A stretch of 64,000 nt of DNA from the NCBI GenBank assembly GCA_964187785.1, contig OZ076416.1, forward strand, positions 35,960,001 to 36,024,000. The letters are read 5' to 3'. Below the pieces are notes generated by a model that saw only the letters and a program-made list of their open reading frames with translations, was not told where the DNA came from and made no database searches. The DNA is from Amphiscolops sp. MND2022 (Eukaryota). Made by a program: the position numbers and the translations under genes. Position 1 is the first letter of the stretch. Each line of letters opens with the position of its first letter. This document shows, one piece after another, positions 9,238 to 36,269 of this stretch.

Positions 9238-10036
9238 GTAAGTAGTTTATTATTTTAGTATATTGTGTTGACCCAGGTAGGGTTTAGATGAAGATCTTGA
9301 CACACTTCGCGCTTTATATGACCCATGTCATGCAACGTTCTTGTATTTTGTGGCAAACTGCTGGAAAGATCTTACGCAGACAAATATTCACCGGGGTGCC
9401 ATATCTCCAAATCGCAAAACATTTCCACGTGATCGAAGAGATGGAAACTTTATGAAATTTCGATCAGATTTTTGGCGGTGTTTATTTCAAATTAAGCAAC
9501 AAAAAGTACAGCACTTAGCTGATTTTGGCTATTTCCGAAGTATATTATGCAATATCGAGGAAACAGCTGTTCGTAACGAAGAAGGCCTGAGCCAATTTTT
9601 GTGACTTTGATTCAGATCTTCACCTTTAATTTCAACACTTTTACAAACACAAAATGCGAATTATTCTGTTTTTACTTAATAAGAGTATTGTCGCGTCGGA
9701 ATTACAGTCTTTGGTTGTTGATTTTGCAAGAAAATATCAGAAAAGTTATAAATAAGAAAATTAAAGACACCTACGGTAATGACCGGGGAAGATTAAGTTT
9801 CCATGTGATGTTTGAGATAATGCGTGAAGAAGGTCGAAAAAGTCCGGATTTCCTGCAAATGCCATTTACCTTTAATTTTCCAAATCTTCATTTGATTCTA
9901 AGACGAGAAGTGTCCTTGTTATTCTGAAAACTTTGCTATTGAATCTTTTTGTCAAACGCATGTCCCAAAAGTGCGCTATCCCTAACTCTAACTCAGTCTT
10001 TGATATGGTTATTGCTTTCGAAATTGGTATTTTTAG

Positions 10037-10249
10037 ACCGTTCTACATACAGTGAGTCACAATTTGCTGCCAGTGTTTGCGAGGGTACTTCTTGTGTGAG
10101 GTGTGGTCGCTTTCCAGACATACCGCCTTCAAAATGGGGAACTCTCAAATGTCCTGAAGGGGCCAAAGGCGATACCGTTAAAATTGTTTACGAAAAAAAG
10201 AAAGACAATCCGCTCCTGAAGTTCTGCGAAATCCAAATTTTCGGCCATG
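10037..10249 (+). CDS. Internal exon, C-terminal half of an F5/8-type C / fucolectin-like domain (copy 1)
   Basis: TTTTTAG acceptor, GTCAGT donor, phase 1-1, 213 nt. CGRFP...LKCPEGAKGDTVKI...LKFCEIQIFG matches the C..G..V.I...L..CEV.V.G pattern. Confidence 0.65.
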
Positions 10250-12675: not shown

Positions 12676-15181
12676 TGTTGTTTCAACTTGTGAATGCTGT
12701 AGCAAGGACAGCTGTACTTTGGTTGCTATAGCTTGGATAGCGAAAGGCTTTAAAAAAGGAACACGTGATATTCAAATTAGACGACAAAACAATGAAAATT
12801 TAACGCGGTAAAAGCGCTGAATAATACACATTGAAAAGATGAATCATCAAATTATCAATATGATACTTAAGTAATCTCAACATTCTGCACCCCTTGATAT
12901 GCATATATCTACAAATATAAATCAACAATTGATTATCTGTTAGTGATCAATTGGAAGTTTCCTTAACTTCACTACAGGTCTCAACATCTCTCCGGTAGCA
13001 GTTTTTACTTTGACCACTCTTGCGATGTCATCGTTTCCAGTATATGCATCAATGACACGGCCAGTTTTCCATGAAAGGGGAGGAATATTATCTTCCGCGA
13101 GAAGAACTAAGTCGCCAGCGCTGATTTGAGGCCCATTCTTGCACCATTTCTTTCGTACTTGGAGTGTTGTCAAATAATCTCTCATCCAAGCTTCCCAAAA
13201 ATCCTTTTGAATTTGCTGGAGCAAACGGAAGTGGCCATTCAAGGAAAGTTTTTGATTACTCAGAGGCTGTGGCGAGAAGGAACCACCAATTAGAAATTGG
13301 GCAGGTGTCAGCGGTGACAAGTCATTTGGTCTGATGACAAAGGTGTCAAAGGTCTGGAATTGAGAATTGCCTCAATCTGGTGGAGAACAGAAAGAAGCTC
13401 CTCATTACTTAATCGTTGTTGACCAACGACACGACGTAAATGCCGTTTCAGGCTCTTGATACCAGCTTCCCAGAGTCCACCGAAATGAGGGGCTCGGGGT
13501 GGAATGGTTATCCATTCAGATCCTTTTTTGTTTGCGTATGCAACGAATGATTCATGGTCCCTGCTAACGAGAATTTCTTGTAACATCTGTAGTTCATTTC
13601 TGTCACCAATGAAAGTTAGGCCGTTGTCACTGAATATTTTTGATTGAGTACCGTGTCCTGAGGAGAATCTTTTCAAGGCCAGGATACATGCTTCTTTAGT
13701 TAGATTAGAAACAAGTTCGAGATGCACTGCTTTAGTGGCAAAACATACGAAGAGAGCTATGTATCGTTTTTGACTAGTCGCTCCTCCGATTTTTGTCCAA
13801 ACAGGACCAGCGAAGTCCCACATTGAGAAAATGGTCTCGCTGGTGTACCTCGCTCCGCGGGTAAATCTCCCATAAGCTGGAAAGGGGGCTTTAACGAATA
13901 TCGACAACATCTTATGCAGTTTTTGATAAACCTATTTATGATTGGTTTCACTCCAACAATCCAAAATTGCTCTCTAATAGGAGAGTGAGTTAATTGCCAC
14001 CCACCATGAAGTGTCTCTTCATGAAAGTGACGAACGATTAAAGGAACCAAAGACAACTCTTTCGGAATGAGAAGAGGGAATTTTTTCAACTCATTCAAGT
14101 TTGAATTCCCCAAGCGGCCTCCAACTCGCAAAGCTTTGGCGTCTGGGTCATAGAAAGGACAGAGATTACGCAAATTTGAAAATTTGGAGAGCTCTTTTTG
14201 GTGCATTAGAAAATTGAAGTCTTGTTTCTGGAATCTTCTCTGCTCCATGCTTATCAAATCATAAATAGCTGACCTTATCTCATGAGGTGAAATAGGTTCT
14301 TGCAAATGATTGCCATCTTTTTTTGAGAGCTGCTAGAAAGCGCCGAACTATAGCTCAAACTCTACACAGTTTAGTGAAACTGGAAAATCGCGAAATCTCG
14401 ATCAACGTTGGTTCCGATGTTACCGTTAAAACCTGTTTCGGTTCGCGTTTGTCCGGAACTTCTTCATTTGTAGGTCGATAATGTGGCCACTTTTCAATAT
14501 CATCTCAGAGCCACGAAGGAACCTTCCACCATAACTCGTATCTAATATTTCAGACACAGTGGTTCCTCCCGAAGCAACATCTGCGGGATTTTCCTTCGTG
14601 GAAACATAATCCCAGTTTTTGCGGGGTAAAATTTCCTGAATATCAGAAACACGATTTGCCACCAAAGTGTTCCAAACTCGCGGGAGTTTAGCAAGCCAGT
14701 TTAAAACGATTGTGCTGTCGGTCCATGCGAAAATATTTTAAATCGCCAAAGCTTCACTCATGTGACATAGAAGCTGAGCTCCGAGTTGAGCAGCGCAAAG
14801 TTCGAGCCGAGGCATCGACAATTGTTTCACAGGGGCTACCTTTGTTTTGGCAGTGAGCAAAAACACCTGCACTTTTCCATCGCAGTCTTTAGTTCGCACA
14901 TAAACAACAGCTGCATTGCCCTTCTCAGACGCATCACAAAATACATGAAGTTGGCTCGTGTACTTTGTTCGAGGAACAACACATCGAGGAATCTCCAGAC
15001 CATTCAAACTGCTAAGCCCTTCACGCAATTTCATCCACTGATTCGCAATGGAGTCTGGAAGTTTCTCTTCCCAAGAAATATCTTTGACCCAAGTTTGTTG
15101 AATGAGGCATTTGAAGGCAATGATCACAGGAGCGATCCAACCGATTGGATCAAAAACCTTTGACGAATCGGACAAGAGAGT
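12676..15181 (-). mobile_element. 5'-truncated BEL/Pao fragment (RNase H, integrase, 3' LTR 12676-12882)
   Basis: LHVFCDAS, AKTKVAP, MPRLELCAA, DFAGP, APHFGGLWEAGIKS and WEAWMRDYL motifs. The LTR differs from 18203-18409 at 5 of 207 positions. Confidence 0.92.
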
Positions 15182-15580
15182 ACTGATATCGGCTGTTTTT
15201 TGTTTTCTGGTACCATAAATATACGTCTTCAACAAATTGATTCACTGAGCAAAAAAATGCTCCGGCTTCCACAAAATTTCAGATCTTAGTTTTCAATTTC
15301 GATTCGTATTCTCCAAATCTTTTCATTCAGTTTTCGTTTTTTTTCAAAAACTTTTCGCTATCTTCGCTGGCCATAAGCAAAACCCTTGTTATCAGGAAAA
15401 TGAGACTTCTAGTATATCAACCCTGAAGCAAACATTTCTTTGCAAGATTTCAGATGAAGTCAATTGGCTTGACAGAGTGTGAAACCGGGTTACATTGTCC
15501 TTTAATCCCAACCCTAACTCTATAACTAACCCTAATTCAGTCTTTGATATGGTTATTGCTTCTGAACTTGGTATTTTTAG

Positions 15581-15790
15581 ATAAAACATACAGTGAGTCA
15601 CAACTTGGTGCCAGTGTTTGCGAGGGTACTTCTTGTGTGAGGTGTGGTCGCTTTCCAGACATACCGCCTTCAAAATGGGGAACTCTCAAATGTCCTGAAG
15701 GGGCCAAAGGCGATACCGTTAAAATTGTTCACGAAATAAAGAAAGACAATCCGCTCCTGAAGTTCTGTGAAATCCAAATTCTCGGCCATG
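15581..15790 (+). CDS. Duplicated lectin-like exon (copy 2)
   Basis: Same AG and GTCAGT sites, 210 nt open, in-frame 3-nt deletion relative to copy 1. Confidence 0.55.
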
Positions 15791-18202
15791 GTCAGTGTAC
15801 AGAAAAGTTGCATACATGAAAAACATCACCAGAATGCATCGGACAGTCAAATCCCATTGCTATTTTGTTTTTTTTTTGCTAAGCAGCGTTGAGCTGGCAG
15901 TTGGTTTTTATGACGTGAACTGATTTGAACTAGTTGTTAACAAATCTTTCATCAGCTCAGATGAAAGTCGGCGCGTTCGTGGGCAATTATTTATAAAATG
16001 TTACGAAGTTGGTATTCAACTTGTCAATCATACCAATGTTAGGTTATTGTTAAAGTTGGAATCTTGACCAGTCATTGAAAATCGGAAGTTTTCTTCGATA
16101 GACTCAATTTACCAACAAACTTTAGAAAATGATTTAAATCGTGCTCCTAAAATTTAGTTTCACTTTCGATAAAAATGATGGCAGATAATTGTTTTTTTAA
16201 ATTAATAGTAGTAATTTATTTGAGACGCAATTGAAAAACTAAAATGCAGGGTTACTTGAATAATCTGATGTAAGGATGAGAGGATAATGGGGTGGAATGA
16301 CGCAAAAACGAACGAATCGCCATCTTCTATAGGTGTAGACTTAAATTTCTAAAACAACTATTTAACAGTGTTTCACTTCAATTATGAGTCTATTGACCGT
16401 TTTTGTTGATTACCGTTTTGTAGAAGGTAAAAATCGAACACCACGCAGATGCAAATAGTGCTTATCAATAAAATACTAACTCTCTTTTTCTCTTACTTAC
16501 TTTCCCTGTATACCTATAGTCAAAGATTAAAACGAAGGATCTTTTAGGCGGGAAGTTAAGTGGCACTGCATTATTTTGTACACTCCTAGTACCCTCCCTC
16601 ATAGAGAAATCGGACAATTTCCAGCCTCAATTGTTTGTCAAAGAGCCCGTAGCGGAAAGATACACTATTGTTCACTAAAGCGATTGACAAATGCAATCTC
16701 AAGCAAAATTAACAACCAGTCAGTTGTTACTTCATTCGTTTGAAACTTCATTCGGACTTGTCAACAGCTTTAGTGAACAATAGTGTATAATAAGCAGACG
16801 AAGTCGGGCATTTCTCAAGTCGAGGTTGCTTTTAAGGCACAAAAAGTGTCGAGTCTTTTAAGTTTGCTCAAAGACATTTCTCATCATAATTGCGATTTTT
16901 CTCACAACGCCAAAAAGAACCTTTAGAATTAGTAACCACAATAAAAAACCAAGCTGGAACTTCGATGCGAAGAAACAATTCAAAACTTGTCACAGAGTGG
17001 TGCAATTTTTTGACTTGAAGAAATGTTTTGTGACGCAAATTATCGAAAAAAATATCTAAAAGGGGACAACAGAATTTTTGATTGAAAGGAACTCAAGTGC
17101 CGAAAAAATTGGAGAACCTTTTCTTTTAGTATCAAGTAGTTTCGTATATCATGTTAGAATGTGAAAAATTCAGTGGAAGAGTGTAGAGAACTTAATGCAG
17201 AGAACCTGAAAAAAAATGAAAAAAGGCGTGTCAAAAGTTCAAGCTAATGAGTGAAGCTGTAAAAGACAATATCAAAATCCTATCTATATCGTAGGTTTTT
17301 CGTAACAAAAATATTTAAATAAAAATTTTCCAAATTAAACAAATGACTCAAGTTGATAAAAATTTGTTTATGTTGAACAAAGGCTCTTGTTTCTCCCATT
17401 AAGAAGGCAACTTTTTGAGATTCTTTTTAGCTTTTCAAAGCAGCTGTTTCGGCCTTTTTGCCCATGATCCACTTTTTTGTGCCGATTTGCTTCTTTGTAT
17501 TTCACTTTCATTCCCAAACTACAATTGTTGCAGAATTTATCAAAGGATGATTCGGAACCGATTTCGACAAGAAGGAAATGCGACAATGACATCAAGATGA
17601 GTATGGTGGTGGGTTTATAAGCTGGGTAATTTTGTCCGAGTGCAAGTTTTTAGTAAAAACATGACACATATCAATTGATTCATAGCAGCTCTCTGGTTTT
17701 CATATTTTATAGCAGGCTCCGTCTCTTGACCACTTGGATGCAAAAATAGTACCATAGCTTGATGTAGGCGACAATATCCGAAAAAATGTGCCGACTCAGA
17801 ACTGTTTGTTTTACGTCCATCCCAATGAAATAAACTTTGGGAGATAAACTTTCTTGTTTTCTTTATTTCTCAGTTTGCACAGCAAAAATGCAACCTAGTG
17901 TGATACCTTTCGAAACTCTTTTTGAGAATCCATGAAAACCTCGGTAAGAAGCTTGACAACAGAACCAAGAATATCAACGATCGATCTGCTAAGATCTTTT
18001 GGAGCGTTTGAAGAGAAACACCAACAAGTATCAAAGAGAACAAAAAAAACCGACGTCAACTGCAGCACGATCAGCATATCAGATACAACGCTGCAGTTCA
18101 TGCTACCAACAACGCTTTCATGTCCTGAATTTTATTACTATGTGTTGCACTTTCACGAAAAGTTCAAAGAATGATTGTTTAGCTGGTAGTGCGAACAGAA
18201 AC

Positions 18203-18409
18203 TGTTGTTTCAACTTGTGAATGCTGTAGCAAGGACAGCTGTACTTTGGTTGCTATAGCTTGGATAGCAAAAGGCTTTAGAAAAGGAACACGTGATATTC
18301 AAATTAGACGACAAAACAATGAAAATTTAACGCGGTAAAAGCGCTGAAAAATACACATTGAAAAGATGAATCATCAAACTATCAATATGATAATTAAGTA
18401 ATCTCAACA
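18203..18409 (-). repeat. 3' LTR of the BEL element
   Basis: TGTTGAGA...AACAACA on the minus strand, preceded by the purine tract. Confidence 0.92.
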
Positions 18410-18466
18410 TTCCGCACCCCTTGATTTGCATATATCTACAAATATAAATCAACAATTGATTATCTA

Positions 18467-21400
18467 TTAGTGATCAATTGGAAGTTTCCTTAACTTCACT
18501 ACAGGTCTCAACATCTCTCCGGTAGCAGTTTTTACTTTGACCACTCTTGCGATGTCATCGTTTCCAGTATATGCATCAATGACACGGCCAGTTTTCCATG
18601 AAAGGGGTGGAATATTATCATCCGCGAGAAGAACTAAGTCGCCAGCGCTGATTTGAGGCCAATTCTTGAACCATTTTTTTCGTACTTGGAGTGTTGTCAA
18701 ATAATCTCTCATCCAAGCTTCCCAAAAATAATTTTGAATTTGCTGGAGCAAACTAAAGCGGCCATTCAAGGAAAGTTTTTGATTACTCAGAGGCTGTGGC
18801 GAGAAGGAACCACCAATTAGAAAATGGGCAGGTGTCAGCGGTGACAAGTCATTGGATCTGATGACAAAGGTGTCAAAGGTCTGGAATTGAGAATTGCCTC
18901 AATCTGGTGGAGAACAGTAAGAAGCTCCTCGTTACTCAATCGTTGTTGACCAACGACACGACGTAAATGCCGTTTCAGGCTCTTGATACCAGCTTCCCAG
19001 AGTCCACCGAAATGAGGGGCTCGGGGTGGAATGGTTATCCATTCAGATCCTTTTTTGTTTGCGTATGCAACGAATGATTCATGGTCCCTGCTAACGAGAA
19101 TTTCTTGTAACATCTGTAGTTCATTTCTGTCACCAAAGAAAGTTAGGCCGTTGTCACTGAATATTTTTGATTGAGTACCGCGTCCTGAGGAGAAACTTTT
19201 CAAGGCCAGGATACATGCTTCTTTAGTTAGATTAGAAACAAGTTCGAGATGCACTGCTTTAGTGGCAAAACATACGAAGAGAGCTATGTATCGTTTTTGA
19301 CTAGTCGCTCCTCCGATTTTTGTCCAAACAGGACCAGCGAAGTCCAAGCCACATTGAGAAAATGGTCTTGCTGGTGTACCTCGCTCCGCGGGTAAATCTC
19401 CCAAAGGCTGGAAAGGGGGCTTTAACGAATATCGACAACATCTTATGCTGTTTTTGATAAACCTATTTATGATCGGTTTCACTCCAACAATCCAAAATTG
19501 CTCTCTAATAGGAGAGTGAGTTAATTGCCACCCACCATGAAGTGTCTCTTCATGAAAGTGACGAACGATTAAAGGAACCAAAGACAACTCTTTCGGAATG
19601 AGAAGAGGGACTTTTTCAACTCATTCAAGTTTGAATTCCCCAAGCGGCCTCCAACTCGCAAAGCTTTGGCGTCTGGGTCATAGAAAAGACAGAGATTACG
19701 CAAATTTGAATATTTAGAGAGCTCTTTTTGGTGCATTAGAAAATTGAAGTCTTGTTTCTGGAATCTTTTCTGCTCCATGCTTATCAAATCATAAATGGCT
19801 GACCTTATCTCATGAGGTGAAATAGGTTCTTGCAAATAATTGCCATCTTTTTTGAGAGCTGCTAGAAAGCGCCGAACTATAGCTAAAACTCTACACAGTT
19901 TAGTGAAACTGGAAAATCGCGAAATCTCGATCAACGTTGGTTCCGATGTTACCGTTAAAACCTGTTTCGGTTCGCGTTTGTCCGGAACTTCTTCATTTGT
20001 AGGTCAATAATGTGGCCACTTTTCAATATCATCTCAGAGCCACGAAGGACCCTTCCACCATAACTCGTTATCTAATAATTCAGAAACAGTGGTTCCTCTC
20101 GAAGCAGCATCTGCGGGATTTTCCTTCGTGGGAACATAATCCCAGTTTTTGCGGGGTAAAATTCCCTGAATATCAGAAACACGATTTGTCACAAAAGTGT
20201 TCCAAACTCGCGGGAGTTTAGCAAGCCAGTTTAAAACGATTGTGCTGTCGGTCCATGCGAAAATATTTTAAATCACTCATGTGACATAGAAGCTCAGCTC
20301 CGAGTTGAGCAGCGCAAAGTTCGAGCCGAGGCATCGACAATTGTTTCACAGGGGCTACCTTTGTATTGGCAGTGAGCAAAAACACCTGCACTTTTCCATC
20401 GCAGTCTTTAGTTCGCACATAAACAACAGCTGCATAGCCCTTCTCAGACGCATCACAAAATACATGAAGTTGGCTCGTGTACTTTGTTCGAGGAACAACT
20501 CATCGAGGAATCTCCAGACCATTCAAACTGCTAAGCCCTTCACCCAATTTCATCCACTGATTCGCAATGGAGTCTGGAAGTTTCTCATCCCAAGAAATAC
20601 CTTCGACCCAAGTTTGTTGAATGAGGCATTTGAAGGCAATGATCACAGGAGCGATCCAACTGATTGGATCGAAAACCTTCGACGAATCGGGCAAGAGAGT
20701 TCGTTTGGTGGTCTGACTGATGTCATCTAAGTCAATTGAAAAGATGAATGTGTCTGAGATTGGTTTCCAGCAAATTCCCAAAGTTTTAATTTTATATTCT
20801 TCTGAAAAAAGTTGAAGTTGATCCAAAGTCTCACGCAGTTCTGTAGGAAGTTCCATAGTCAATTCAGGATGACTTGAGGTCCACTTTCTTAACTCGAAGT
20901 CAAACTTCCAGACACAACGTTCCAGAAAGTTCCAGACACAACTCTTTTACAAGATTTCGTTCGTCTTCAATACTGTCAGCGCCACCAAGGAACTCATCGA
21001 CATAAAAACAATTATTCAATGCGTTTGCCACTGATTCAAATTGAGTCTGACTGGCGACTTCTTTAAGACATCTTGTGGAGTGGAATGCGGAGGATGCAAT
21101 ACCATAAGTCACTCGCTTTATCCTCAGATGTTGAATCTCTTCATTTTTGCTGTTACGCCAGAGCAAACGATGAAAATCTTTATCAGGACTATCAAGTTCG
21201 ACTTGTCGATACATTTTTGCTATATCAGCTGATAGTGCAACTACCTTGAAACGGAAACGGTTTAGAATTGTGAACAAATCGTTTTGAACAACCGGTCCAA
21301 CCATCAAGCTTTCATTTAGTGAAACACCGTTGGAAGTCTTAGCTGAACCATCAAACACAACGCGTAATTTTGTAGTTGTCGAATCTTCTTTAAAAACACA

Positions 21401-22246
21401 ATGATGAGGTAGATAGTAAACTTCATTCGACGGTTTATTGATTTCTTCTTGTGGAATACCTTCCATGTGGTCCAGAGAGATGAATTCATTTATAAAATCG
21501 GAATATCTCTTCCTCAAATCAGGATTTCCGTCCAACAGGCGCTCTAACGATTTAAATCTACTCTCAGCATGGGTTAGACTTTCACCCAAATGCATATCTT
21601 TTTGAACGGCAACTTGACAACGAATCTATTGTCAATAACCTTCGTTGTCGACTGGAAAAAGTTTTCACATTTGTTTTCTTCATCAGTGAAAATTGTCTTT
21701 TAGGTATCTCCCAGAACCTACGGAGGGTGTCATCAATCGAGAGATGGCAATGGAATGCTTCTCCAACCGTGTCGTCATGTTTCCCCAGGACAATCCATCC
21801 AAAAATTGTTTTTCTCAAAAAAAGTCTGGGTGAAATTTCTTTACGTTCATTCTCTATTATTTCTTCAAATACATCAACACCAAGTATCATGTCGACTGGT
21901 TGGGAATATTGATAGTCAGGATCAGCCAACTTATAGCGTTCAAGATTTTTAGGGTGCTGAAAGCTTTGCTGGGTACGCTAGTGGTAAGTTGTTTCAGTAT
22001 ATACGCAGAAACTCGAATTTCCTTTGAAACGGACTTCAATACGATGTTAGCAAGGCCTGCTTTGACATCGTTCGACTGTCCACCAGTACCACTGAGATTC
22101 AAGTGTTTCTCTGTTATATTCAAATTCAGTCTCCTAGACAAAGCTTGCGTGATCAAGCTCAATTGCGAGCCACTATCTAACAGAGCCCGACAAGGGATGA
22201 GTTGATTCTTTGAATTCAGTACAGAAACAATAGCTGTAGGAAGCAA
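18467..22246 (-). pseudogene. BEL/Pao pol remnants (aspartic protease, RT, RNase H, integrase)
   Basis: ALLDSGSQ, YYLPHHCV, LRVVFDGS, ADIAKMYRQV, VTYG, FYVDE, GLDFAGP and the RPVVKLRKL terminus; several frameshifts and stops. Confidence 0.92.
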
Positions 22247-23517
22247 AACACTGCAATTATCACTTTCTGTGACATTTCCGTCTTTTTCATGATGTAGACT
22301 GTTACCAGTACAGTACTGCTGAATGTACTGGAAGTAGGCTCCTCCCGATGTAGCAACGAGTGATGTTTCCTATTGCACTTCTGACAAGTTGATTTGGAAG
22401 TACAAGTCTTTATTCCATAACCTTCCTTCAGGCAGTTGAAACATAATCTCAACTGTTTGACCTTCTCATATTTGTCAGCAATTGAAAGAATTAGGCACTT
22501 GAGACATGTGTAAACACGATGAGAGTGTTTGCAGAACGAACAAATCATTGGAGTCTATTGATAGCTTTGACAATCTTCTGACTCGTTTTGAATATCAATA
22601 TCCTTACTGCCTAATGCTTCTCGTTTCATTTCAGGTTGTCGAGTCGATGCCTCTAGAGCTCTAGCTCTTCGTTCAAGAAACTGTCTCAGATCATCCATAG
22701 TCTTAATGTTATGTCATCCATAGTCATCCATATTAATGTTTACATTTGTCAATTGCCATTCCTTCGCAGTTTCGCTGTCTAATTTCTCCGACAAAATATG
22801 CACCCAAATGAAATTGCAGGCTTTTGTGTCAATTCCTAAAGCACTTAAGGCCATTTCATTCTCATTGAATGTCCCTATGAGTTTGCGAAGACTATCCGGG
22901 CCTTCCTTCCTCATGTTCTCAATCTTCATGATAATGGTTAAGTGTGCCTTCGTGATCAGAAACTGGTTGTCATATCGATCTTGCAATTTGATCGCAGCGT
23001 CGTAATTTGCTTCAGTGGTAGGCAAGTGTGACAAAACACGTTTGGCGTCACCTAATAACGCGCCCTTCAAATAAAAAAGTTTTTGCACTTTCGGCAGCGT
23101 TGGGTGATCATGGACTGTTCCTTTGAACATGTCAAAAAAGGATTTCCAATCTTTGTACTGACCGTCAAAGGTAGGTAACTCAATTCTGGGTAATCGAACG
23201 TTGTTCTCTCGGTGTATAGAACCGTCATCATCATCGGTGCTATCAGAAAGACCAGTTAGCCATTTCCCCCTCTGCTTCATCAGACTTTTCAGTCTAACAT
23301 CATTTTAATCCTGCGTGAAAATCTCAGCTTCCATGGCTTCGTCTGTGTTTTCGGTACCATTTAAGATTTCCAAGTTCAACTGATCGAGAACCCTAGCCTT
23401 CTCCTCTAGCGATTCAAGCAGCGTCTCAACAGTTAATTTATCTTCAGAAGTTTTTTCATCAACTAGTTTGGTCCTTATGTTATCGAATTCACCTTTCTTT
23501 CGGGTTATTATACACAT
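22216..23517 (-). pseudogene. BEL/Pao gag remnants
   Basis: LPRIELPTFDG..DWKSFFDMF and QKLFYLK (DUF1759-type), plus a triple Cys/His knuckle CSFC...H, CFNC...C, CQKC..KHHSLLH. Confidence 0.9.
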
Positions 23518-23556
23518 ATGAGCCTTTCGAGAATATATTGACTTCTCAAACCACTT

Positions 23557-24378
23557 TCAGACATTTTTAGCGCTAATTAGGACAATTCTACTTCGGCTGT
23601 TACGTAGGTAGACTGTGTGCTCAGCCCCTTTCAGGCAGGACACGTTACAGTTGCTAAGAAAAGAACGTGGAGTGAATGTGTCGTAACGTATGAACGCAGC
23701 CCCTTTCAGGCAGGTTCCTATGAATACAAGAGATTTAAGATAATACCTTGGAGCCCAAAATGGATATCTCCAAGACTCTTTCGTGGTTGTAGTAACTTTT
23801 TTGTTAGAATCTTTCGAATACTTCCTTTTAAGGACCTTTTCGTTGAGAAGTTTGTGAACTTTGGCAAAGGCCTTGCTTTCAAGATGACAAAGATCTTTCG
23901 ATATGTGCTTTAAATCATAAAGATAATGCGAAACACCAACATAAATAATATTTGAGCAAAGTTGCCCACAGAGTGAGTTTAATTCAGTGTTCAATTGGAG
24001 CACCTTACTCTGTAGTTCAGATGTACCTCGTGGTGGCACACCAACAACGAAAACCTTCTTGGTGCGTGAAATTAAAGCTTGAGCAATATCACAAATTTCG
24101 ATTGCTACTCGTGAACGTTCTTCTGCGGATCGAAAACTAACACTTTTCGAAACAAAATTCTCTAAGGCGTTTCCCCCTATAAATAACACAATTTTTTCGA
24201 ACTTGTCTGGAGGCAGTATAAAATCCCAGAGATCTTTGTGTCGTGCTCCAGGAACAGATAAGACGTCAAATGACGTAGTTCTAAACTTTTTCAGTAGGGA
24301 ATCAGACAAAATGAGGTTTACTGAATTATTCTTCAAAAGCAGACTTCGTTTCATGTAGATTCCAGTAAATTTTTCCAA
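23557..24378 (-). CDS. SGNH/GDSL hydrolase-like ORF inside the BEL element, between PBS and gag
   Basis: Four conserved blocks in the right order: LILSDS (I), VPGA (II), IVLFIGGN (III), DLCHL (V). 273 open codons; first ATG at 24354. Confidence 0.75.
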   Translation of the reverse strand: MEKFTGIYMKRSLLLKNNSVNLILSDSLLKKFRTTSFDVLSVPGARHKDLWDFILPPDKFEKIVLFIGGNALENFVSKSVSFRSAEERSRVAIEICDIAQALISRTKKVFVVGVPPRGTSELQSKVLQLNTELNSLCGQLCSNIIYVGVSHYLYDLKHISKDLCHLESKAFAKVHKLLNEKVLKRKYSKDSNKKVTTTTKESWRYPFWAPRYYLKSLVFIGTCLKGAAFIRYDTFTPRSFLSNCNVSCLKGAEHTVYLRNSRSRIVLISAKNV

Positions 24379-24407
24379 GAGAAAAAATTAAAACGGTCTC
24401 ACCATGG

Positions 24408-24427
24408 AAATCACGTCGGGGTCACCA
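24408..24427 (-). other. Primer-binding site complementary to tRNA-Trp
   Basis: Plus strand AAATCACGTCGGGGTCACCA matches the 3' end plus CCA of eukaryotic tRNA-Trp(CCA) as I recall it; it lies 2 nt from the 5' LTR. Confidence 0.85.
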
Positions 24428-24429
24428 AA

Positions 24430-24636
24430 AGTTGTCTCAACTGGTGAATGCTGTAGCAAGGACAGCTGTACTTTGGTTGCTATAGCTTGGATAGCAAAAG
24501 GCTTTAAAAAAGGAACACGTGATGTTCAAATTAGACGACAAAACAATGAAAATTTAACGCGGTAAAAGCGCTGAATATTACACATTGAAAAGATGAATCA
24601 TGGAATTCTCAATATGATAATTAAGTAATCTCAACA
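24430..24636 (-). repeat. 5' LTR of the BEL element
   Basis: Matches 18203-18409. Confidence 0.92.
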
Positions 24637-24713
24637 GGAACATTGTAACTGTAAGCGAAATTGTTGTTTCTTTCACTTTTTATTTGTTTTCTTGACACTC
24701 TTGAAAACACACT

Positions 24714-27700
24714 TGTTGAGACCAAACCAAACTAAATAAACTCATTCTAACACATGCTAGTTGACTTTCCTGTGAAAAGTATGTTCATGTGCTGACGTGG
24801 ATTTAACTGACGTTTTTCCTGCGTCTCGTTGATTTGTTCCCACTATGCACATGCTTCATTCGTTCTTTTCCGATCAGCTACTCAAACACAGTCTGTCAAT
24901 AGAAACAATTTAGTTCAAATTTTTCATCTGTTTCAAAAGTTCTGTGAACTCATAAGATTTTGGTACCGCGTTTACCAAGAGTTTCGAGCTTGGCAATTCA
25001 ACCTTGACCAGAAAAAGTATTAATACTTTGGAATAATGACACACGCACTCCAAAGATCGAGATCAGGCCATCTCGGATCAGTCACGCGAGTAGAAAACTC
25101 AGTGAAGACATTCTTGAGAAAGAACCTGCTAGAATTACTCTGCTAGAGGTATCCAAACTTGAGTACGCACTCGATAGTTGTCGAGACAATTCAGTCAGGA
25201 TTGAGATCTTGGACAGACAAATTCGTGCTGCATTGGAAGAAGCCGGAGTACCGGCTCAAGTAATAGACAAAACAAACCAAAGGTTGATGACAATGGTTTT
25301 CAGATTTGAAGCAATATGAAAGTCATCGAAAAAAGGCTCCAAAGATCTACATCAGCAGCTACGACAGCCGCAATGACAGTTCTTGAACCAAAATTTGACG
25401 ATGCATCGCCTTCGACGAGTGTTGGACTGAAATAACACAAACTCAGTTTGCCAAATTTAATGGTAAATGTACAGAATGGATTTCATTCTCGGGTATATTC
25501 AAGAACACGATGGATTATAACTGTTCACTAAAGAGTATCCAAAAGCTTCATTATCCCAAAAAGTCACTGAAAGACGAACCTGCAAGCCTTCTTGCGCATC
25601 TCCCAACTTCGAGTGTCAAGTATGAAGTTGCCTTGAAACTTTTAGAAGACAAATATGCCAACAAAAGTATGATCGTGCACGCTCGAATGAATCTTCGACT
25701 TTTGTCCAATGACAGAGTCTTCACCAGAGCAACTCAGAAAACTCATCAGTAGGGGGACACCCCTAGGGCTCTTCAAGCAATGGGTCTAGATGTTGGATCA
25801 TCTGACTTAAATTGGGTGCACATCATTGGCAAAACATTTGGATAACGTTACCAGACGACAATGGGAGTTGAATAGCAAAGGAAATGGTGTACAATGTACG
25901 ACTGAAGCGAAGAAGTTCTTAGAGCAACGGGCACGAGCACTTGTCGCCTCGATGCCAGCGACAAAAGTTTCATCAAAAATTAGGCGAATAAGTTCTTCTA
26001 AGAAAAATCAAGGAAACTAAAGCAACAAAGTCAAATTGTACCATCGTACCAGCTGCTCTCAAGAACAGGCAATTTACCAATGCGAGAAATTCATAGCGAT
26101 GAAAATCGAAGACAGACGCAACCTTGTAAACGACAAGCAGATATGTTTTAAGTGCCTACGGTGTGGCCATCCATGTAAGGACTGCCAATCGAACCCTCGA
26201 TGCCAAAGGTGTCAAAAATGCCACATCACGGTCTGGCATAATTCTAGCGAGGGATCTGACACCAAATCAGCTTCCAGTTTCCATTTGGGTTACGAAGTCA
26301 GTCTTATCCACTGTCCAGGTTTCAGTCATGTCAAAAATTGGAAGTCATGAAAAATGCAGAACTTTACTGGATAGTGGATCTGAAACAAGCTTCATCAGCG
26401 ATGAGTGCTTTCGACTTCTATAATTGAACTGTCAAAAGGGAAAACTATTGATGAATGGCATTGGATGTGTCTCAAAATCCTGTAGATATGGCCAGACAAA
26501 TATCAGAAGTATTGATGACAATGCGAAATCTCAGTTACCAGTATTCATTTTGCAACGCGCCTGACCCAAGCTATGCCTTCTAGTTCACTGCGGATCCCAA
26601 AATTCACGAATTTACCTCATGTCAAACTGTCTGACCCAATTTTCGCAAAACTAGGAAAAGTTGATCTTATCATTGGAATCTATCTATATGCAGAAATCAT
26701 CGAAAATGAACGAATTAGAGTCTCAGGAGGAATTTATGCACGCACGATGGTCTTTGGCTGGACAGCCTGTGGCTCTAGAGCTGGTAAAACCAATATTCAA
26801 CTCAATTCGTCACGATTATCAATTGATTCCGACCTTAAACAATTCTAGGAACTATAGGAAGTTCCGAAGGCTCGGCAAGTGTCAAAAAAGAAGCCTGCGA
26901 GCAACATTTCGTCAAATCAACACGCCTGGGATACAACTGATTTATGGTAAAACTACCCATCAAGCCGAAGAATTAATTGGATAAGAGCTTCATTCAAGCA
27001 AACAGAAATTTCGATTTTCTAGAAAAATAATGGATTCAAAACCTGAACTGAAAGAGAAATATAAACAGTTCATTGCTTAGTTCCTTGCGACTGGACACAT
27101 GGAGGAAGTGCCAGCAGACGAAGTAGATATCCAAGACAACAAAAGCTTCTACCTTCCTCATCAAAGACGACTCTACTACCATAAAAACCTGAGTCGTATT
27201 TGATGAATCAGCTGCAACTGCAACAGGCAAATCGCTCAATGACCTTCTCATGGTAGCACCATTTGTCCAAGACGATCTTAACTCCATTGTGATGCGATTC
27301 CCGTTGACCCCGATTGCCCTTTTTGCTGATATTGAAACGGTGTATCGGCAAGTTGCCCTTGACACGCCACACAAGGATTTCCACATTTTTTGACGCGAAA
27401 ATCCAGAGCAACCGCTTGGAAGCTGAAAAGTGTCACATATGGCATTGCATCTTCCGCTCTCCACTCCACAAAGTGCCTGAAGGAGATTTTGTTATTGACT
27501 GTTAATGAAAAGGTGAAACACCACCTGATGTACTCATTTTACGTAGTTGACTTTCTTGGAGGAGCTAAGTCTGCGGAAGCTGCCCGTCAACCCCTCACAG
27601 ATTTACACTAGGAACTACTCAAGTACGACTTGCCACTTTGCAATTGGGTTTCAAGTCACTCTGAACTGGCTCAAGAACTCCCGTGTGACCTGCAACAAAC

Positions 27701-30700
27701 TTCAGATTATTATTTTCCGACCCCTCATTTTAAAATGGGTGAGGAAAATCATCATCTGTGTTGCGTTTTTTCCCCCAAAGTCTGCCAAATTTGACTTACC
27801 ACCTCAGGTGGTGAGTTTTTCCAAATTCTGCCAACTTTGACTCACCACCACTGGTGGTGAGTCAAGTAACTAAATAGTCAAGTAACTATTTCTAAAATTT
27901 CAGGACGACAATAAGACGTAAAGGGAATAAGATCTGAAATCACTAAACTTTAGATCTTATTATTTAGATCCTATTCCCCTCTCAAAATAGCTATGGCTCA
28001 GTTGATGAAGGCGAAAAGGGAGGAAAATATCCCGGTGCTTAGCGGGCGTCCTGTATTCTCAAACTCTGTGTGACCTTTACAAAGCCAAGGCTTTGGGAAT
28101 CATTTGGAAACCAAATTCTGATACAATCTGCTTTGAAACCGATCTTAAATGTCAACTATTTCACGAAACGGAATTATGAATTAGTTGTCAGCAGTAGCGA
28201 AATTGTTCGATCCAAAGGGATGGTTGTCTCCAATCAATACCATTTTCAAGATTCTGTTGCAACAAACGTGGCTCACTGGTATCCAATGGGATCATCCCGT
28301 TCCAGAACCCAATCGAGAGCAATTCACTTACTCTGTATGCCACTGAGATGTCTCGTGAATCCATTCCCCCAACAATCGTTAAACATGGAAATATTAACTT
28401 CCAGTTTCACGTTTTCTGTGATGCCTCTGTGCAGGCATGTGCCGGAGTAATATACCTCATATCAATAGATGTATTGGGAAACTAGTCTGCTTGTTGATAG
28501 CGAAAAATCAACACTAGTCTGCTCGTATCTAAAACAAAGGTCTCACCTGTCAAAGTGGTGTCAATGCCTCGATTTGAAATCTGTGGAGCACATTTAGCTG
28601 CCAAACTTCTAGAACAAACGAAAGTCATCCTAGAACTTACAGGAATTAATCTAGTTTGTTACGCATGGACTGACTCAACAATCACACTTCAATGGTTAGT
28701 GCAACTTCCTAGAATCTGGAACACCTTTGTAGATAATCGTGACTCTTTTATTCAAGAAGTAATGAAGCAAAACTTTTGGAATCAAGTCCCTACAAAGTGC
28801 AACTCTGCAGATCTCGCTTCTAGGTGATCTCTGTGATGGAAACGATTACCTGTCCTTTTTGGTGGTCAGGCCTTGAATGGTTAATGCAATTCCACGAGAA
28901 TCAATGGCTACAACTGGACGGGCCCTGTGCCCTTGACCTTCCTTAGAAACGATCAGAAAATAAAGAAAAACGAGCAAAATCAATCAACAAGGAGACAATT
29001 CTTGCTGATCAAAATGAAAAGTTTCCATGTTCTATTGTGACAACTTTTCAGACGTCAAATCACCCTGTAATACCCATTGAACAAATCGGCAGCTTCACGA
29101 AGCTCGCCGATGTCGTCAGTAAAGTTCTACTATTCATCTGGATATTGAAGTTAGGAAAAAACCGCGATGAAGTTTCGACAATTTGCAAATTCCGAAATCT
29201 TACGACAGGATCAACTTCAAACTTTGCCACGCCAGCACGCACGACTAACTAGTGGTAAATAATTGCCAGTGACTGAGTGATTCTCAACCTATCACCTTTC
29301 TTTGCTGAAAAGTTCGACACAATCAAAGTTGGTGGTCGATTGTCGCAATCCAACTTTGACGAGGATAAGAAATTTCCTTTTCGGACTTCCAAGAATTCTG
29401 CTTTGAACACGTTACTCGTCCGTCGTTTCCATGGGAGGAAACCAATTGACCGTAAAAACATTAAGGTAGCATTTTTGGGTCGTAAATAGTAAATGTCATT
29501 CGGTAATATCATCAGAAGCTGTGTAAAGTGCTTCCGATTTCAGTCCAAAGTTGATGCCAGACCTCTTAAGCGAACAAGTGACACCTTCTCACCTCTTCAC
29601 AAATTGTGGCATTGATTTTGCGGGTCAACACTGCGTCAAGGGCAAATCGAACCCGAAAATATATATTGCAGTTTTCATTTGTCTCGCTACCAGGTCTTGT
29701 CATTTGGAGTTATTCTCAGGTTTGACGTTTGACGACTGCATCATGCTTTCAGACGTTTTGCTGCCAGGAGAGGAACTCCTAAGAAAATTCTAACAGACAA
29801 CGGAATTAATTTTATTGGCGCTCTCCTACGTTATATCACATGTCAGGGTACGGATTCGGTTAACCATTTACTGCGGGCCCCTCATTCCAGAGGAATTTCG
29901 GAAGCAGCCGACAAAACGTTGAAGCGTCATATGAAAAGTGTTGTCGGCCGGCAGGGGTTGACTTATGAAATCTCCTTACAGTCTTGGATCAAGTTGAAGC
30001 CATTTTCAACTCACAACTACTCTTGCATGACACTTCCCATATCAGATGACCCTAATGATCACATTAGATAAACCCATTCTCATTTTTGACTGGCGACTCA
30101 CTTTTAGCAATGGCTCGACAACATATAAAAATCCCTCATAATCAATAGTTGAAGCTCATGCAACACCTCCAAATTTTTTTTGGAAATCGTGGAGAAGAGA
30201 TTACCAAGCTTCAAATACGCAGAGAGTGGTTCCAAAGCTACTTGTGGGCAAATTAGTATTGAAACCTCAGGACAACAAAGCCCATCTTTTTTGAAAACTT
30301 GGTGAAATCACCAAAGTGTTCAAAGCAAATGGTGACATTTCAACGGTGGCAGAGCTTAAAACCTCAACTATAAATTCTTATTCTCCCAGTAATCAAACTT
30401 CGAAAGCTGCAAGGGGACGCTCCAAGCCATACAATTCACTGAGGGAACAACACATCAGCCTCAACAGGCTCTAAGTTACAAGATTGTACGAACTGACTAA
30501 ACTCAAGTTTACCGCACCTCGACCTATCTCCGCAAAAAATCTCCCCTTTGTGTATAAAACTGACCCGTTTGTTATGACGACAATGATTTTGTAACCAGAT
30601 ATTCGGTATTGGCCTACACTTCACTGGTATATGCTTTAAGAATCCATAGTTTCACTCAATTTTTTGAGTTTTGGCCAAAAGCATTACTTGGACCATTACG

Positions 30701-31954
30701 ATATCAGACACTCATTGGTTTTCGATTGTTTATTTAGTTCAATTCAAATATTCCCAATTTTTACACCTTTGATCTACTCCAGACGACTCTCTGCTCTATA
30801 GAGAATAATCAAAAAGCACTTTTGCTGCAAAATGAAAATTCACACACCTAATCTTCTATACATTCTTCAACCCGCCTCCTCCCGAGTGCCAGATACGTGT
30901 CTGCGAGTTTCATCTGTCGAGGCCTCCATTCCTCAGACACCTTCCTCTCATAGCTGTACATCGCACACACTGCTCGAGGCTGCATGTCGGTCCAAACGGA
31001 GTGCAGGAAGAGGTACAGGAAAAACACAGTACATCCAGACTACAGACGAATTCAGAAGATTTGACAAGCCCTTGTCCGATTGACGAAATCGATGGTCAGG
31101 AAGAAATTGTGGCGACAATCGCCGGCAACCCAGTTTAGCTTCCTTCCCACCGATGATGAAAGGCCGATAATCCATATCTTCCTATCGGTTAGAAGAGTCA
31201 AAAAAGAATGCCCAACCTCATTCAATTAAACATGAAAGGACCTGAAACGAGATTGTTTGGCACGAAAGCTCTCTTCAGCCATCTCACTTCGATTGAAGCT
31301 CTCGGGAACCAGAACTGCGCCCGATGGTGTCACCTCTGCTCCTACTCGAGAAGTAACTTCGCAACTGTTTTGGAGTCGTAAGATAGTTCTAGGAGAGGAC
31401 TTTCATCCTCCGAAGAACGTGTTGCCACCCTCTTCTGAATGACTGCCAGCTCCTCCGGTTTTTCAAGCACTTCGCTGAACGTCTTCACGGGCACGAGACA
31501 GGTGGGAGGACTTAAGCCACTCCAAGAAAGCGCTGAAGTACGGAAGCATCTTGGAACTGTCGGCCCGCAGATCATGGTCGTTCGTCGCAGAAAACTCTGG
31601 CACACTCCTCTGCCGACCACTCTTGGCTCGATTGGCGTCTCTATTGACGAATTCTGTCATCTAAATTCTGAAATTATTGAAAAGCTTCAACGTGGGCGAC
31701 ATGTTGAGATTAAAACAATCTAAATAAACTCAAGCTAACACATGCTTCTTGACTTTCTTGTGAAGAGTTTGTTCATGTGCTGACGTGGATTTAACTGACG
31801 TTTTTCCTCCAATTCGTTGAATTGTTCACACTTTGCACATGCTTCAATGTTCTTTTTCGATCAACTACTCATAAACAGTCTGGCAATAGAAACTTCTCAG
31901 TTCAAACATTTCATCTTTCGTTTCGTAAACTCACGTTTCGTAAACTCAACAACA
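24714..31954 (+). mobile_element. Second, older and heavily degraded BEL/Pao element
   Basis: Diverged LTRs at about 24714-24958 and 31700-31954, both starting TGTTGAGA. Remnants of gag (CFKCLRCGH), protease (TLLDSGSE), RT (VTYGIASS, FYVVDFLGGA), RNase H (SKTKVSP, MPRFEICGA) and integrase (GIDFAG). No TSD found; LTR ends approximate. Confidence 0.85.
27720..28078. repeat. Repeat insertion interrupting RT of the second BEL element
   Basis: The RT reading resumes at KALGIIWKP. The insert contains two hairpin units and GGGAATAAGATCT motifs shared with 48-49.5 kb. Ends approximate. Confidence 0.6.
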
Positions 31955-34900
31955 TTTACAAAAATCATTTTAAGGTTCTCGAGAGTAAAAGGGAAACATG
32001 GATGAATTGCAAGGTTGAAGCGTTTGAAATCTGTCGCGTCCCCAAAGGTGCGATGGGTCCGGTGTGCATCTTTAGGAAGATAAACAACGCCTACAATGTT
32101 GTGTCAAACTCTAAAAACTCATCCACTAGTCATGTAACTTGTGTAAATATATTAATTCTAATCAGGGTCTCTTAATTGTTTTACTTTGTAAAAGTAACAT
32201 CTTGATGTACTTTGGGCAAATCCAAAAGCCTTAATGATGATTTTATTAGTTCAAATAACACATGTGCAGTGCTACTAATTTCATTCTGAACGAATGGTAT
32301 TAATTGGATACGTCATCATGCAATATGATTACTATTGAATATGCATCACTGCGCGCATTTGTAACTCTCAGTATACGTCATTATACGTTTCAACCATTAA
32401 TGAGTATACGTCACTATACGTATTTGTGACTTTCATTATGCGTCATTATGCGGTTTATGCAGTGATGAATATACGTCAGTATACATATTTTCTCATCCAA
32501 ATTTATATGCGTCATCCCACGGTTCAAGGAGTAGCGAGTACTCGGCATTGTGCGTTTCTCGCTATGTTCCTTTTAATTTGAAGGAATAACTTTATGCTTC
32601 CATATATAGTGTTAAAAGTCCATAAAATATCGTTGTTTAATACCTTTCTAGGGTCTTTTAGACAGCGGAATCGTTTCTGTATGTCATAATTTGATGAATC
32701 ATAGTATATAAATAGGATAAAAACATTAAGGTAGCATTTTTGGGTCGTAAATAGTAAATGTCATTCGGTAATATCATCAGAAGCTGTGTAAAGTGCTTCC
32801 GATTTCAGTCCAAATTTGATGCCAGACCTCTTAAGCGAACAAGTGACACCTTCTCACCTCTTCACAAATTGTGGCATTGATTTTGCGGGTCAACACTGCG
32901 TCAAGGGCAAATCGAACCCGAAAATATATATTGCAGTTTTCATTTGTCTCGCTACCAGGTCTTGTCATTTGGAGTTATTCTCAGGTTTGACGTTTGACGA
33001 CTGCATCATGCTTTCAGACGTTTTGCTGCCAGGAGAGGAACTCCTAAGAAAATTCTAACAGACAACGGAATTAATTTTATTGGCGCTCTCCTACGTTATA
33101 TCACATGTCAGGGTACGGATTCGGTTAACCATTTACCGCGGGCCCCTCATTCCAGAGGAATTTCGGAAGCAGCCGACAAAACGTTGAAGCGTCATATGAA
33201 AAGAGTTGTCGGCCGGCAGGGGTTGACTTATGAAATCTCCTTACAGTCTTGGATCAAGTTGAAGCCATTTTCAACTCACAACTACTCTTGCATGACACTT
33301 CCCATATCAGATGACCCTAATGATCACATTAGATAAACCCATTCTCATTTTTGACTGGCGACTCACTTTTAGCAATGGCTCGACAACATATAAAAATCCC
33401 TCATAATCAATAGTTGAAGCTCATGCAACACCTCCAATTTTTTTTGGAAATCGTGGAGAAGAGATTACCAAGCTTCAAATACGCAGAGAGTGGTTCCAAA
33501 GCTACTTGTGGGCAAATTAGTATTGAAACCTCAGGACAACAAAGCCCATCTTTTTTGAAAACTTGGTGAAATCACCAAAGTGTTCAAAGCAAATGGTGAC
33601 ATTTCAACGGTGGCAGAGCTTAAAACCTCAACTATAAATTCTTATTCTCCCAGTAATCAAACTTCGAAAGCTGCAAGGGGACGCTCCAAGCCATACAATT
33701 CACTGAGGGAACAACACATCAGCCTCAACAGGCTCTAAGTTACAAGATTGTACGAACTGACTAAACTCAAGTTTACCGCACCTCGACCTAGCTCCGCAAA
33801 AAATCTCCCCTTTGTGTATAAAACTGACCCGTTTGTTATGACGACAATGATTTTGTAACCAGATATTCGGTATTGGCCTACACTTCACTGGTATATGCTT
33901 TAAGAATCCATAGTTTCACTCAATTTTTTGAGTTTTGGCCAAAAGCATTACTTGGACCATTACGATATCAGACACTCATTGGTTTTCGATTGTTTATTTA
34001 GTTCAATTCAAATATTCCCAATTTTTACACCTTTGATCTACTCCAGACGACTCTCTGCTCTATAGAGAACAATCAAAAAGCACTTTTGCTGCAAAATGAA
34101 AATTCACACACCTAATCTTCTATACATTCTTCAACCCGCCTCCTCCCGAGTGCCAGATACGTGTCTGCGAGTTTCATCTGTCGAGGCCTCCATTCCTCAG
34201 ACACCTTCCTCTCATAGCTGTACATCGCACACACTGCTCGAGGCTGCATGTCGGTCCAAACGGAGTGCAGGAAGAGGTACAGGAAAAACACAGTACATCC
34301 AGACTACAGACGAATTCAGAAGATTTGACAAGCCCTTGTCCGATTGACGAAATCGATGGTCAGGAAGAAATTGTGGCGACAATCGCCGGCAACCCAGTTT
34401 AGCTTCCTTCCCACCGATGATGAAAGGCCGATAATCCATATCTTCCTATCGGTTAGAAGAGTCAAAAAAGAATGCCCAACCTCATTCACATAAACATGAA
34501 AGGACCTGAAACGAGATTGTTTGGCACGAAAGCTCTCTTCAGCCATCTCACTTCGATTGAAGCTCTCGGGAACCAGAACTGCGCCCGATGGTGTCACCTC
34601 TGCTCCTACTCGAGAAGTAACTTCGCAACTGTTTTGGAGTCGTAAGATAGTTCTAGGAGAGGACTTTCATCCTCCGAAGAACGTGTTGCCACCCTCTTCT
34701 GAATGACTGCCAGCTCCTCCGGTTTTTCAAGCACTTCGCTGAACGTCTTCACGGGCACGAGACAGGTGGGAGGACTTAAGCCACTCCAAGAAAGCGCTGA
34801 AGTACGGAAGCCTCTTGGAACTGTCGGCCCGCAGATCATGGTCGTTCGTCGCAGAAAACTCTGGCACACTCCTCTGCCGACCACTCTTGGCTCGATTGGC

Positions 34901-35982
34901 GTCTCTATTGACGAATTCTGTCATCTAAATTCTGAAATTATTGAAAAGCTTCAACGTGGGCGACATGTTGAGATTAAAACAATCTAAATAAACTCAAGCT
35001 AACACATGCTTCTTGACTTTCTTGTGAAGAGTTTGTTCATGTGCTGACGTGGATTTAACTGACGTTTTTCCTCCAATTCGTTGAATTGTTCACACTTTGC
35101 ACATGCTTCAATGTTCTTTTTCGATCAACTACTCATAAACAGTCTGGCAATAGAAACTTCTCAGTTCAAACATTTCATCTTTCGTTTCGTAAACTCACGT
35201 TTCGTAAACTCAACAACATTTACAAAAATCATTTTAAGGTTTTCGAGAGTAAAAGGGAAACATGGATGAATTGCAAGGTTGAAGCGTTTGAAATCTGTCG
35301 CGTCCCCAAAGGTGCGATGGGTCCGGTGTGCATCTTTAAGAAGATAAACAACGCCTACAATGTTGTGTCAAACTCTAAAAACTCATCCACTAGTCATGTA
35401 ACTTGTGTAAATATATTACTTCTAATCAGGGTCTCTTAATTGTTTTACTTTGTAAAAGTAACATCTTGATGTACTTTGGGCAAATCCAAAAGCCTTAATG
35501 ATGATTTTATTAGTTCAAATAACACATGTGCAGTGCTACTAATTTCATTCTGAACGAATGGTATTTATTGGATACGTCATCATGCAATATGATTACTATT
35601 GAATATGCATCACTGCGCGCATTTGTAACTCTCAGTATACGTCATTATACGTTTCAACCATTAATGAGTATACGTCACTATACGTATTTGTGACTTTCAT
35701 TATGCGTCATTATGCGGTTTATGCAGTGATGAATATACGTCAGTATACATATTTTCTCATCCAAATTTATATGCGTCATCCCACGGTTCAAGGAGTAGCG
35801 AGTACTCGGCATTGTGCGTTTCTCGCTATGTTCCTTTTAATTTGAAGAATTAACTTTATGCTTCCATATATAGTGTTAAAAGTCCATAAAATATCGTTGT
35901 TTAATACCTTTCTAGGGTCTTTTAGACAGCGGAATCGTTTCTGTATGTCATAATTTGATGAATCATAGTATATAAATAGGAT
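29454..35982 (+). repeat. Near-identical tandem duplication, units 29454-32718 and 32719-35982
   Basis: ORF track repeats with offset 3264-3265; only about 15 differences seen by eye. Confidence 0.95.
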
Positions 35983-36269
35983 GACGACATTCTGACGAGG
36001 CGCTATTATTAGGTTTTCCTGGGAATGATGCTAGTAAAATTGCGTGTCATCCTTTTGTAATTTTTGGGTTTTCTTTAGAAATAGGAGGAGCTAACACAAT
36101 TTGAATAACTTTCCTCAAGTTCAGTTTGTTTTCTACTGGACCATAAAGCAATCATTGTAAATCATCTTCATATTTGGAGGTCCTAAACAACACAGTCTGT
36201 TTTCATACAAACTTTCATCTCAAATTCAAATTCTTGACCCTGCAAATTGATCGTTTTCACTTGAGAAAG

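Follow-up and report, generated by a model that had tools for sequence, protein, structure and literature searches.

Capture of SGNH esterases by retroelements is already known; such a capture has reportedly been described in a Helitron as well, and Vesta, one of the LTR retrotransposons concerned, is Ty3/Gypsy-like. The ORF1 proteins of ZfL2-1 and of CR1, L2, RTEX and Penelope elements contain an SGNH fold with intact S-G-N-D-H residues, encoded in the first ORF, before the replication genes, as a domain of a coiled-coil protein in non-LTR elements that have no Gag; according to the sections of PMC3905857 considered here, the ZfL2-1 esterase is active and binds lipid, membrane targeting being the favoured role and host deacetylation a listed alternative. 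In the bdelloid Vesta elements the GDSL/SGNH enzyme is a stand-alone ORF3 with intact catalytic residues placed after pol, in the env position, and the esterase pool is common to unrelated retroelements (PMC5408684, in part). Amphibian Ngaro-like YR retrotransposons have an extra SGNH ORF of putative function beside gag, which follows the recombinase, in overlapping frames, within elements that have split direct repeats (PMC9210276, in part). An extra ORF before gag-pol has been described in the plant LTR element Retrosat2, whose divergent ORF0, of unassigned function, is loosely predicted to be an ester hydrolase in some members only (PMC3485330, in part). For the Belpaoviridae, gag, pol and env are the sole genes given in the ICTV profile (PMC8742986). 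Why unrelated retroelements capture SGNH esterases is a standing question in the portions of PMC3905857 and PMC5408684 covered.

The window analysed here is a stretch of 64,000 nucleotides from Amphiscolops sp. MND2022 (GCA_964187785.1, contig OZ076416.1, forward-strand positions 35,960,001 to 36,024,000). It contains, on its minus strand, a decayed BEL/Pao LTR retrotransposon with an esterase gene between a tRNA-Trp primer binding site (PBS) and gag. The 206 bp 5′ LTR (24431–24636) begins with TGTTG and is identical to the 3′ LTR (18204–18409) at 196 of 206 positions; no target-site duplication was found around this copy. The PBS (24410–24427) pairs with the 3′-terminal bases of a tRNA-Trp whose gene lies in the same genome, plus CCA, and the polypurine tract is located at 18410–18422. 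Downstream of the PBS are a motif, GGT(G/T)AGA(C/T)CGTT, conserved in all six subfamilies of the family described below, overlapped by a five-codon upstream ORF with a weak start (24388–24405), then the esterase ORF of 199 aa (23755–24354), a spacer (23565–23754) and a degenerate gag-pol (18467–23564) in nine segments with changing frames and seven stops. The Pfam order in gag-pol is DUF1759 (E 5e-34), zinc knuckles, protease, RT (RVT_1), Peptidase_A17 in the RNase H region (E 7e-17), integrase (Integrase_H2C2) and DUF5641 (E 3e-31); in sibling copies Gag and PR-RT-RH-IN are in one frame. LTR pair, PBS and domain order agree with an earlier note on this DNA, which had placed the ORF inside both LTRs of a BEL/Pao element, in the interval from PBS to gag. 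The limits that it gave to the ORF need revision. On the minus strand no stop interrupts the frame between 24387 and 23557, and the note had the ORF run from 24378 through to 23557. That it starts soon after the PBS stands, but position 24378 is an upstream TTG, and the conserved ATG is at 24354, 55 nt past the PBS. The far end was misplaced: the family ORF stops at 23757–23755, and the 66 extra codons were read because the window copy has a private TGG at the family stop, giving 265 aa from the ATG at 24354. Positions 23754–23557 are non-coding spacer, overlapping the gag ATG at 23564, and are read through in the window copy only.

With the Belpaoviridae (PMC8742986; PMC3118150, in part) the element shares short LTRs, PBS, polypurine tract, a single gag-pol frame, the PR-RT-RH-IN order and Pao-type Pfam domains, and differs from them in the extra non-env gene 5′ of gag and in its tRNA-Trp primer, as opposed to Arg or Gly (PMC8742986); a conserved non-env ORF before gag departs from the canonical layout of gag, pol and optional env. 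As in the ZfL2-1 type, the SGNH fold with intact catalytic residues is encoded in the first ORF, before the replication genes, but here by a free ORF in an LTR element with Gag, and a host element with LTRs, Gag and integrase falls outside the class of LINE ORF1p esterases. The gene resembles Vesta ORF3 in being stand-alone, catalytically intact and harboured by an LTR retrotransposon, and the Ngaro-like ORF in being an extra SGNH ORF beside gag, whereas it is situated, within a BEL/Pao element, between PBS and gag. In position it recalls Retrosat2 ORF0, which is divergent and belongs to a plant element. A literature search, with Repbase, Dfam, GyDB and subscription journals outside its scope, found no BEL/Pao esterase; the word "esterase" is absent from the main text of PMC3118150, whose supplementary element sequences lie beyond that scope, and the parts of PMC7599744 and PMC12451622 covered gave nothing further on the question. 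What is new is an arrangement of known parts, SGNH and BEL/Pao, and the lineage extends SGNH capture to BEL/Pao in a new position. The reading that we favour, with rather more confidence than doubt, is that of a separate, conserved SGNH gene whose product is likely active, likely translated together with gag-pol by leaky scanning, and probably a lipid-handling accessory in particle assembly or transport.

All four SGNH blocks reported in the earlier note are present with their catalytic residues: I, SDSL (S19); II, PGA (G36); III, GGNAL (N62); and V, DLCH (D154 and H157). Among 67 sequences the catalytic columns S, G, N, D and H are kept in 60, 59, 60, 55 and 52, respectively. The AlphaFold2 model, for which the 67-sequence alignment was the input (pLDDT 86.9), has the three-layer alpha/beta fold of the superfamily. 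Its top Foldseek match is a PAF-acetylhydrolase (PAF-AH; E 7.6e-7), and VIA-align superposed it on a sialic acid esterase with Z 17.7 and rmsd 2.3 over 161 aligned residues, in a list dominated by SGNH enzymes; the structural matches are mostly acetylesterases and do not indicate the substrate. By profile, the best PDB match was 4c1b, the ZfL2-1 LINE ORF1 esterase (E 8e-4), to which all four blocks align, and a PDB search with the single sequence gave no match. The first Atlas match of the window protein was a GDSL cluster (0.94). Pfam returned for the window protein DUF459 alone, below cut-off, and five of 19 aligned relatives weakly matched each GDSL model (Lipase_GDSL and GDSL_2; best E 5.5e-5). 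The SGNH fold match on which the earlier note had made its reading depend was therefore obtained and, on predicted structure together with profile results rather than Pfam alone, the product is an SGNH hydrolase; the catalytic residues make it likely that the enzyme is an active esterase. The esterase proteins are basic (pI 9.3–9.7), with a lysine/arginine-rich C-terminal tail, and a strongly hydrophobic segment is absent from them.

The esterase is a family trait under purifying selection. In the genome search 150 of 789 candidates were scored; 112 of these 150 rows and all 128 rows of a search with the gag N-terminus were merged to 119 gag loci, the 38 rows left out, at ~30–38% identity, belonging to other lineages. 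An esterase match lies at most 1.3 kb upstream in 100 of the 119 merged loci, and the remaining 19 comprise 11 with a decayed esterase, two truncated loci, three of a more distant family and three of a close family without esterase. In total, 111 of 119 related gag loci have the esterase (100 by search and 11 on inspection), contrary to the possibility, raised with the initial claim, that other copies would lack the ORF. The family is divided into six subfamilies (A to E, with D split into D1 and D2) that are 52–95% identical to the window protein. In most full-length copies examined the LTRs are 97–100% identical, the esterase is open in young copies, and a 5-bp target duplication is evident for 8 of 12 siblings. 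Values of dN/dS are 0.07–0.20 where dS is finite, between-subfamily dS being near or at saturation. A quickly searched RT-RNase H tree (46 rows) unites the 21 rows that carry the esterase in a single clade (SH-aLRT 97), which is nested within BELs with gag directly after the PBS; the RT trees are quick searches without bootstrap whose rows are elements of this genome. The window copy was left out of the tree because its aligned segment is too short, and its esterase falls with subfamily A. A low-copy, decayed family (L099, L104 and L105) has the same tRNA-Trp PBS and a related gag, and has neither esterase nor spacer; it is placed inside the clade by gag and outside it by RT. The three decayed loci of this close family imply that near relatives can do without the gene, which is thus not essential. 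In the loci L040–L050 and L068 the PBS has subfamily-wide insertions of 2–3 nt (B, C and D) or matches over only ~9–10 nt (E); these subfamilies nonetheless have near-identical LTRs.

Of 45 parsed entries, five of which repeat a copy already present, 41 have 0–2 ATGs in the 720–790 nt from the esterase ATG to the gag ATG, versus shuffle means of 8–11; the counts reach 3–6 in four decayed copies. Internal Met is absent from the esterase in 6/6 subfamilies, with 1.9–3.6 expected, and out-of-frame ATGs are scarcer than under a codon-aware null in five of the six (P ≤0.007), subfamily E not being significant (P 0.35); the out-of-frame ATGs that survive open frames of 2–10 codons. In scanning, a pyrimidine at −3 makes a weak start and a purine a strong one. 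In every subfamily the base at −3 is a pyrimidine for the esterase ATG and a purine for the gag ATG, an agreement that does not amount to six independent tests, the subfamilies sharing ancestry. Depletion of ATGs, together with a weak esterase start followed by a strong gag start, makes leaky scanning the best reading. Some ribosomes would start at the weak esterase ATG while others would scan the nearly ATG-free stretch of ~750–790 nt to the gag ATG, and it is probable that the esterase and gag-pol are obtained from one RNA in this way, which would give an LTR element a means of translating two proteins. Another SGNH-bearing BEL lineage, the third described below, includes a subfamily with 6–8 ATGs before gag, and scanning is therefore not universal for the layout. 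The spacer also holds an 18-nt motif, CCTGCCTGAAAGGGGCTG, in 2–3 copies per element in 6/6 subfamilies (23697–23714 and 23622–23639 in the window), which is a candidate cis-acting RNA signal with perhaps a role in packaging or reinitiation; it has 154 genome matches against 0 for the reversed control. A hairpin at the motif found no support: its inner stem is invariant, covariation is not above shuffles (47/500 reach the score) and the folding z of the spacer ranges from +0.5 to −1.6. Additional base-pairing between the post-PBS motif and tRNA-Trp was rejected (P 0.06–0.68), and an Rfam search returned snoR27 alone, below threshold (E 0.9).

Other origins and routes of expression have to be weighed against these data. 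The window copy, being old, broken and devoid of a target-site duplication, could by itself be taken for the site of a one-off nested insertion or the carrier of a neutral passenger; the esterase at 111 of 119 related gag loci, the ORF open in young copies with LTRs 97–100% identical and dN/dS of 0.2 or less at saturated dS speak against both readings, which the survey of copies refutes and which are extremely improbable. Fusion to Gag had been suggested for intact copies; the esterase would then form the N-terminal part of Gag-Pol, either in one continuous frame or through readthrough of its stop. In favour of fusion, most subfamily A copies have an uninterrupted 62-codon spacer in the gag frame, and one copy (L008/L035) has, through a private change of the family stop to GGA, a single frame of 1975 codons from esterase to integrase. 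Against it, the esterase terminates at a conserved PF-stop in 6/6 subfamilies, with an ORF of ~199 aa; subfamily A keeps the stop in 23 of 25 copies (19 as TGA by pattern and four in translation), B, D1 and E have gag in a frame different from that of the esterase, the spacer has several in-frame stops in C and D2, and a strong gag start is maintained in every subfamily. The open spacer of A is best read as chance, because in the window copy's own branch of A the spacer is shifted. A frame common to SGNH and gag, for which the earlier note had proposed a check, is present in the L008/L035 copy. A search of 7993 candidates for longer, fused relatives turned up none, a result that carries little weight. 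Fusion is largely refuted for five subfamilies and very unlikely overall; as far as the reading frames tell, the esterase is a free ORF, not joined to Gag. Gag-Pol might instead be reached by splicing out the esterase, for which every one of the six subfamilies offers a donor-like G|GT(G/T)AGA after the PBS, or by reinitiation or internal entry through the repeated spacer motif, to which its 2–3 copies per spacer and its specific genome matches would lend themselves. No acceptor common to the subfamilies precedes the gag ATG, however: D1 has no candidate beyond the first spacer bases, and those of E are pyrimidine-poor only. The motif-guided routes find no backing in covariation or folding energy, and none of the three routes needs the purging of ATGs from the esterase ORF. 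We regard them as unlikely.

By analogy with the ZfL2-1 esterase we propose, tentatively, that the product, with a pI of ~9.5 and without a transmembrane segment, is a basic lipid-handling accessory protein in particle assembly or transport, whose basic surface and tail would bind acidic membranes or RNP while the enzyme hydrolyses or holds an acyl chain; such a membrane or particle accessory role is possible, at somewhat less than even confidence. Alternatively, with the layout as described, the enzyme could act on a host target instead of the element's particle, by deacetylating glycans, lipid messengers or proteins, or by blunting a defence. The closest folds, acetylesterases and PAF-AH, suit this proposal, as do the free state of the protein, with no coiled coil noted, and the occurrence in this genome of related esterases within a LINE as well as close to a copia element; in the sections of PMC3905857 at hand such roles are left open. 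On the other hand, the fold stands shortly before gag in three BEL lineages, and a pI of 9.3–9.7 is maintained in both related families, which fits coupling to Gag synthesis. A host target is somewhat unlikely. The lineage provides a small soluble enzyme for assay.

SGNH ORFs recur among the BEL elements of this genome. A distant lineage (L051–L062; RT ~30% identical) has a related esterase (~30–35% identical) inside its LTRs, which are 1.27–1.67 kb long and 97–99.9% identical in 6/6 pairs. This esterase, also ATG-depleted, stands ahead of gag as well because it is inside the LTR. A metagenome scan gave two loci, among which the focal layout was not found; one of them, the contig L094, has the same in-LTR esterase layout. 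A third lineage, forming a family larger than the focal one (L081, L083–L085, L115–L139), has a ~200-aa ORF between PBS and gag (at 2.2–2.9 kb in L083 and L084) with a predicted SGNH fold (pLDDT 91.8; VIA Z 10.4, rmsd 3.4, 141 aligned), and gag is downstream of the ORF in 25/25 sampled loci. In addition to the subfamily with 6–8 ATGs before gag it includes one that is ATG-free there. HH-align found no sequence link between the focal esterase and this family, an Atlas search with the family was uninformative, and its rows were counted as esterase-negative in the RT tree because the focal profile misses them. From the RT distance and the intervening lineages without the ORF, the captures would be independent across BEL lineages. 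The focal lineage has young subfamilies with many copies as well as close relatives that lack the gene, and two more BEL lineages hold an SGNH fold in the corresponding position, which makes this convergence measurable. A wider proposal, which we consider rather doubtful, is that SGNH folds are recurrently recruited, separately translated substitutes for a matrix protein in BEL/Pao: in at least three independent lineages of this genome leaky scanning would set the ratio to Gag-Pol, and env-less particles would gain a lipid-binding or lipid-cutting membrane route, possibly between cells. Outside the BEL elements, a related SGNH ORF (L063:2685–3299) precedes a cysteine-rich ORF1 and an endonuclease-RT frame in a LINE-like element. 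A different kind of additional ORF, antisense and JmjC-like, is situated within or next to the LTRs in other BEL families: at L093:1614–2492 (minus strand; PF02373, E 2.6e-5, above cut-off), with similar ORFs in L086, L088 and L074–L076.

Some further features of the window were recorded. A near-palindromic GCTATC...CTATAGC in the 5′ LTR (~24480–24500) is shared by subfamilies A, C, D2 and E, whose LTRs have otherwise diverged. A second, older BEL element, with LTRs 85% identical, lies head to head with the focal one at 24711–31916 on the plus strand; an esterase match is absent from it. The 3′ part of this second element is duplicated (29453–32727 and 32718–35991, 99.5%), and a 5.2-kb tandem duplication (9976–15181 and 15520–20700, 96%) includes the 3′ end and LTR of the focal element. 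At 39083–40473 and 41394–42075 there are a 218-bp tandem array and a 16-bp minisatellite in both orientations.
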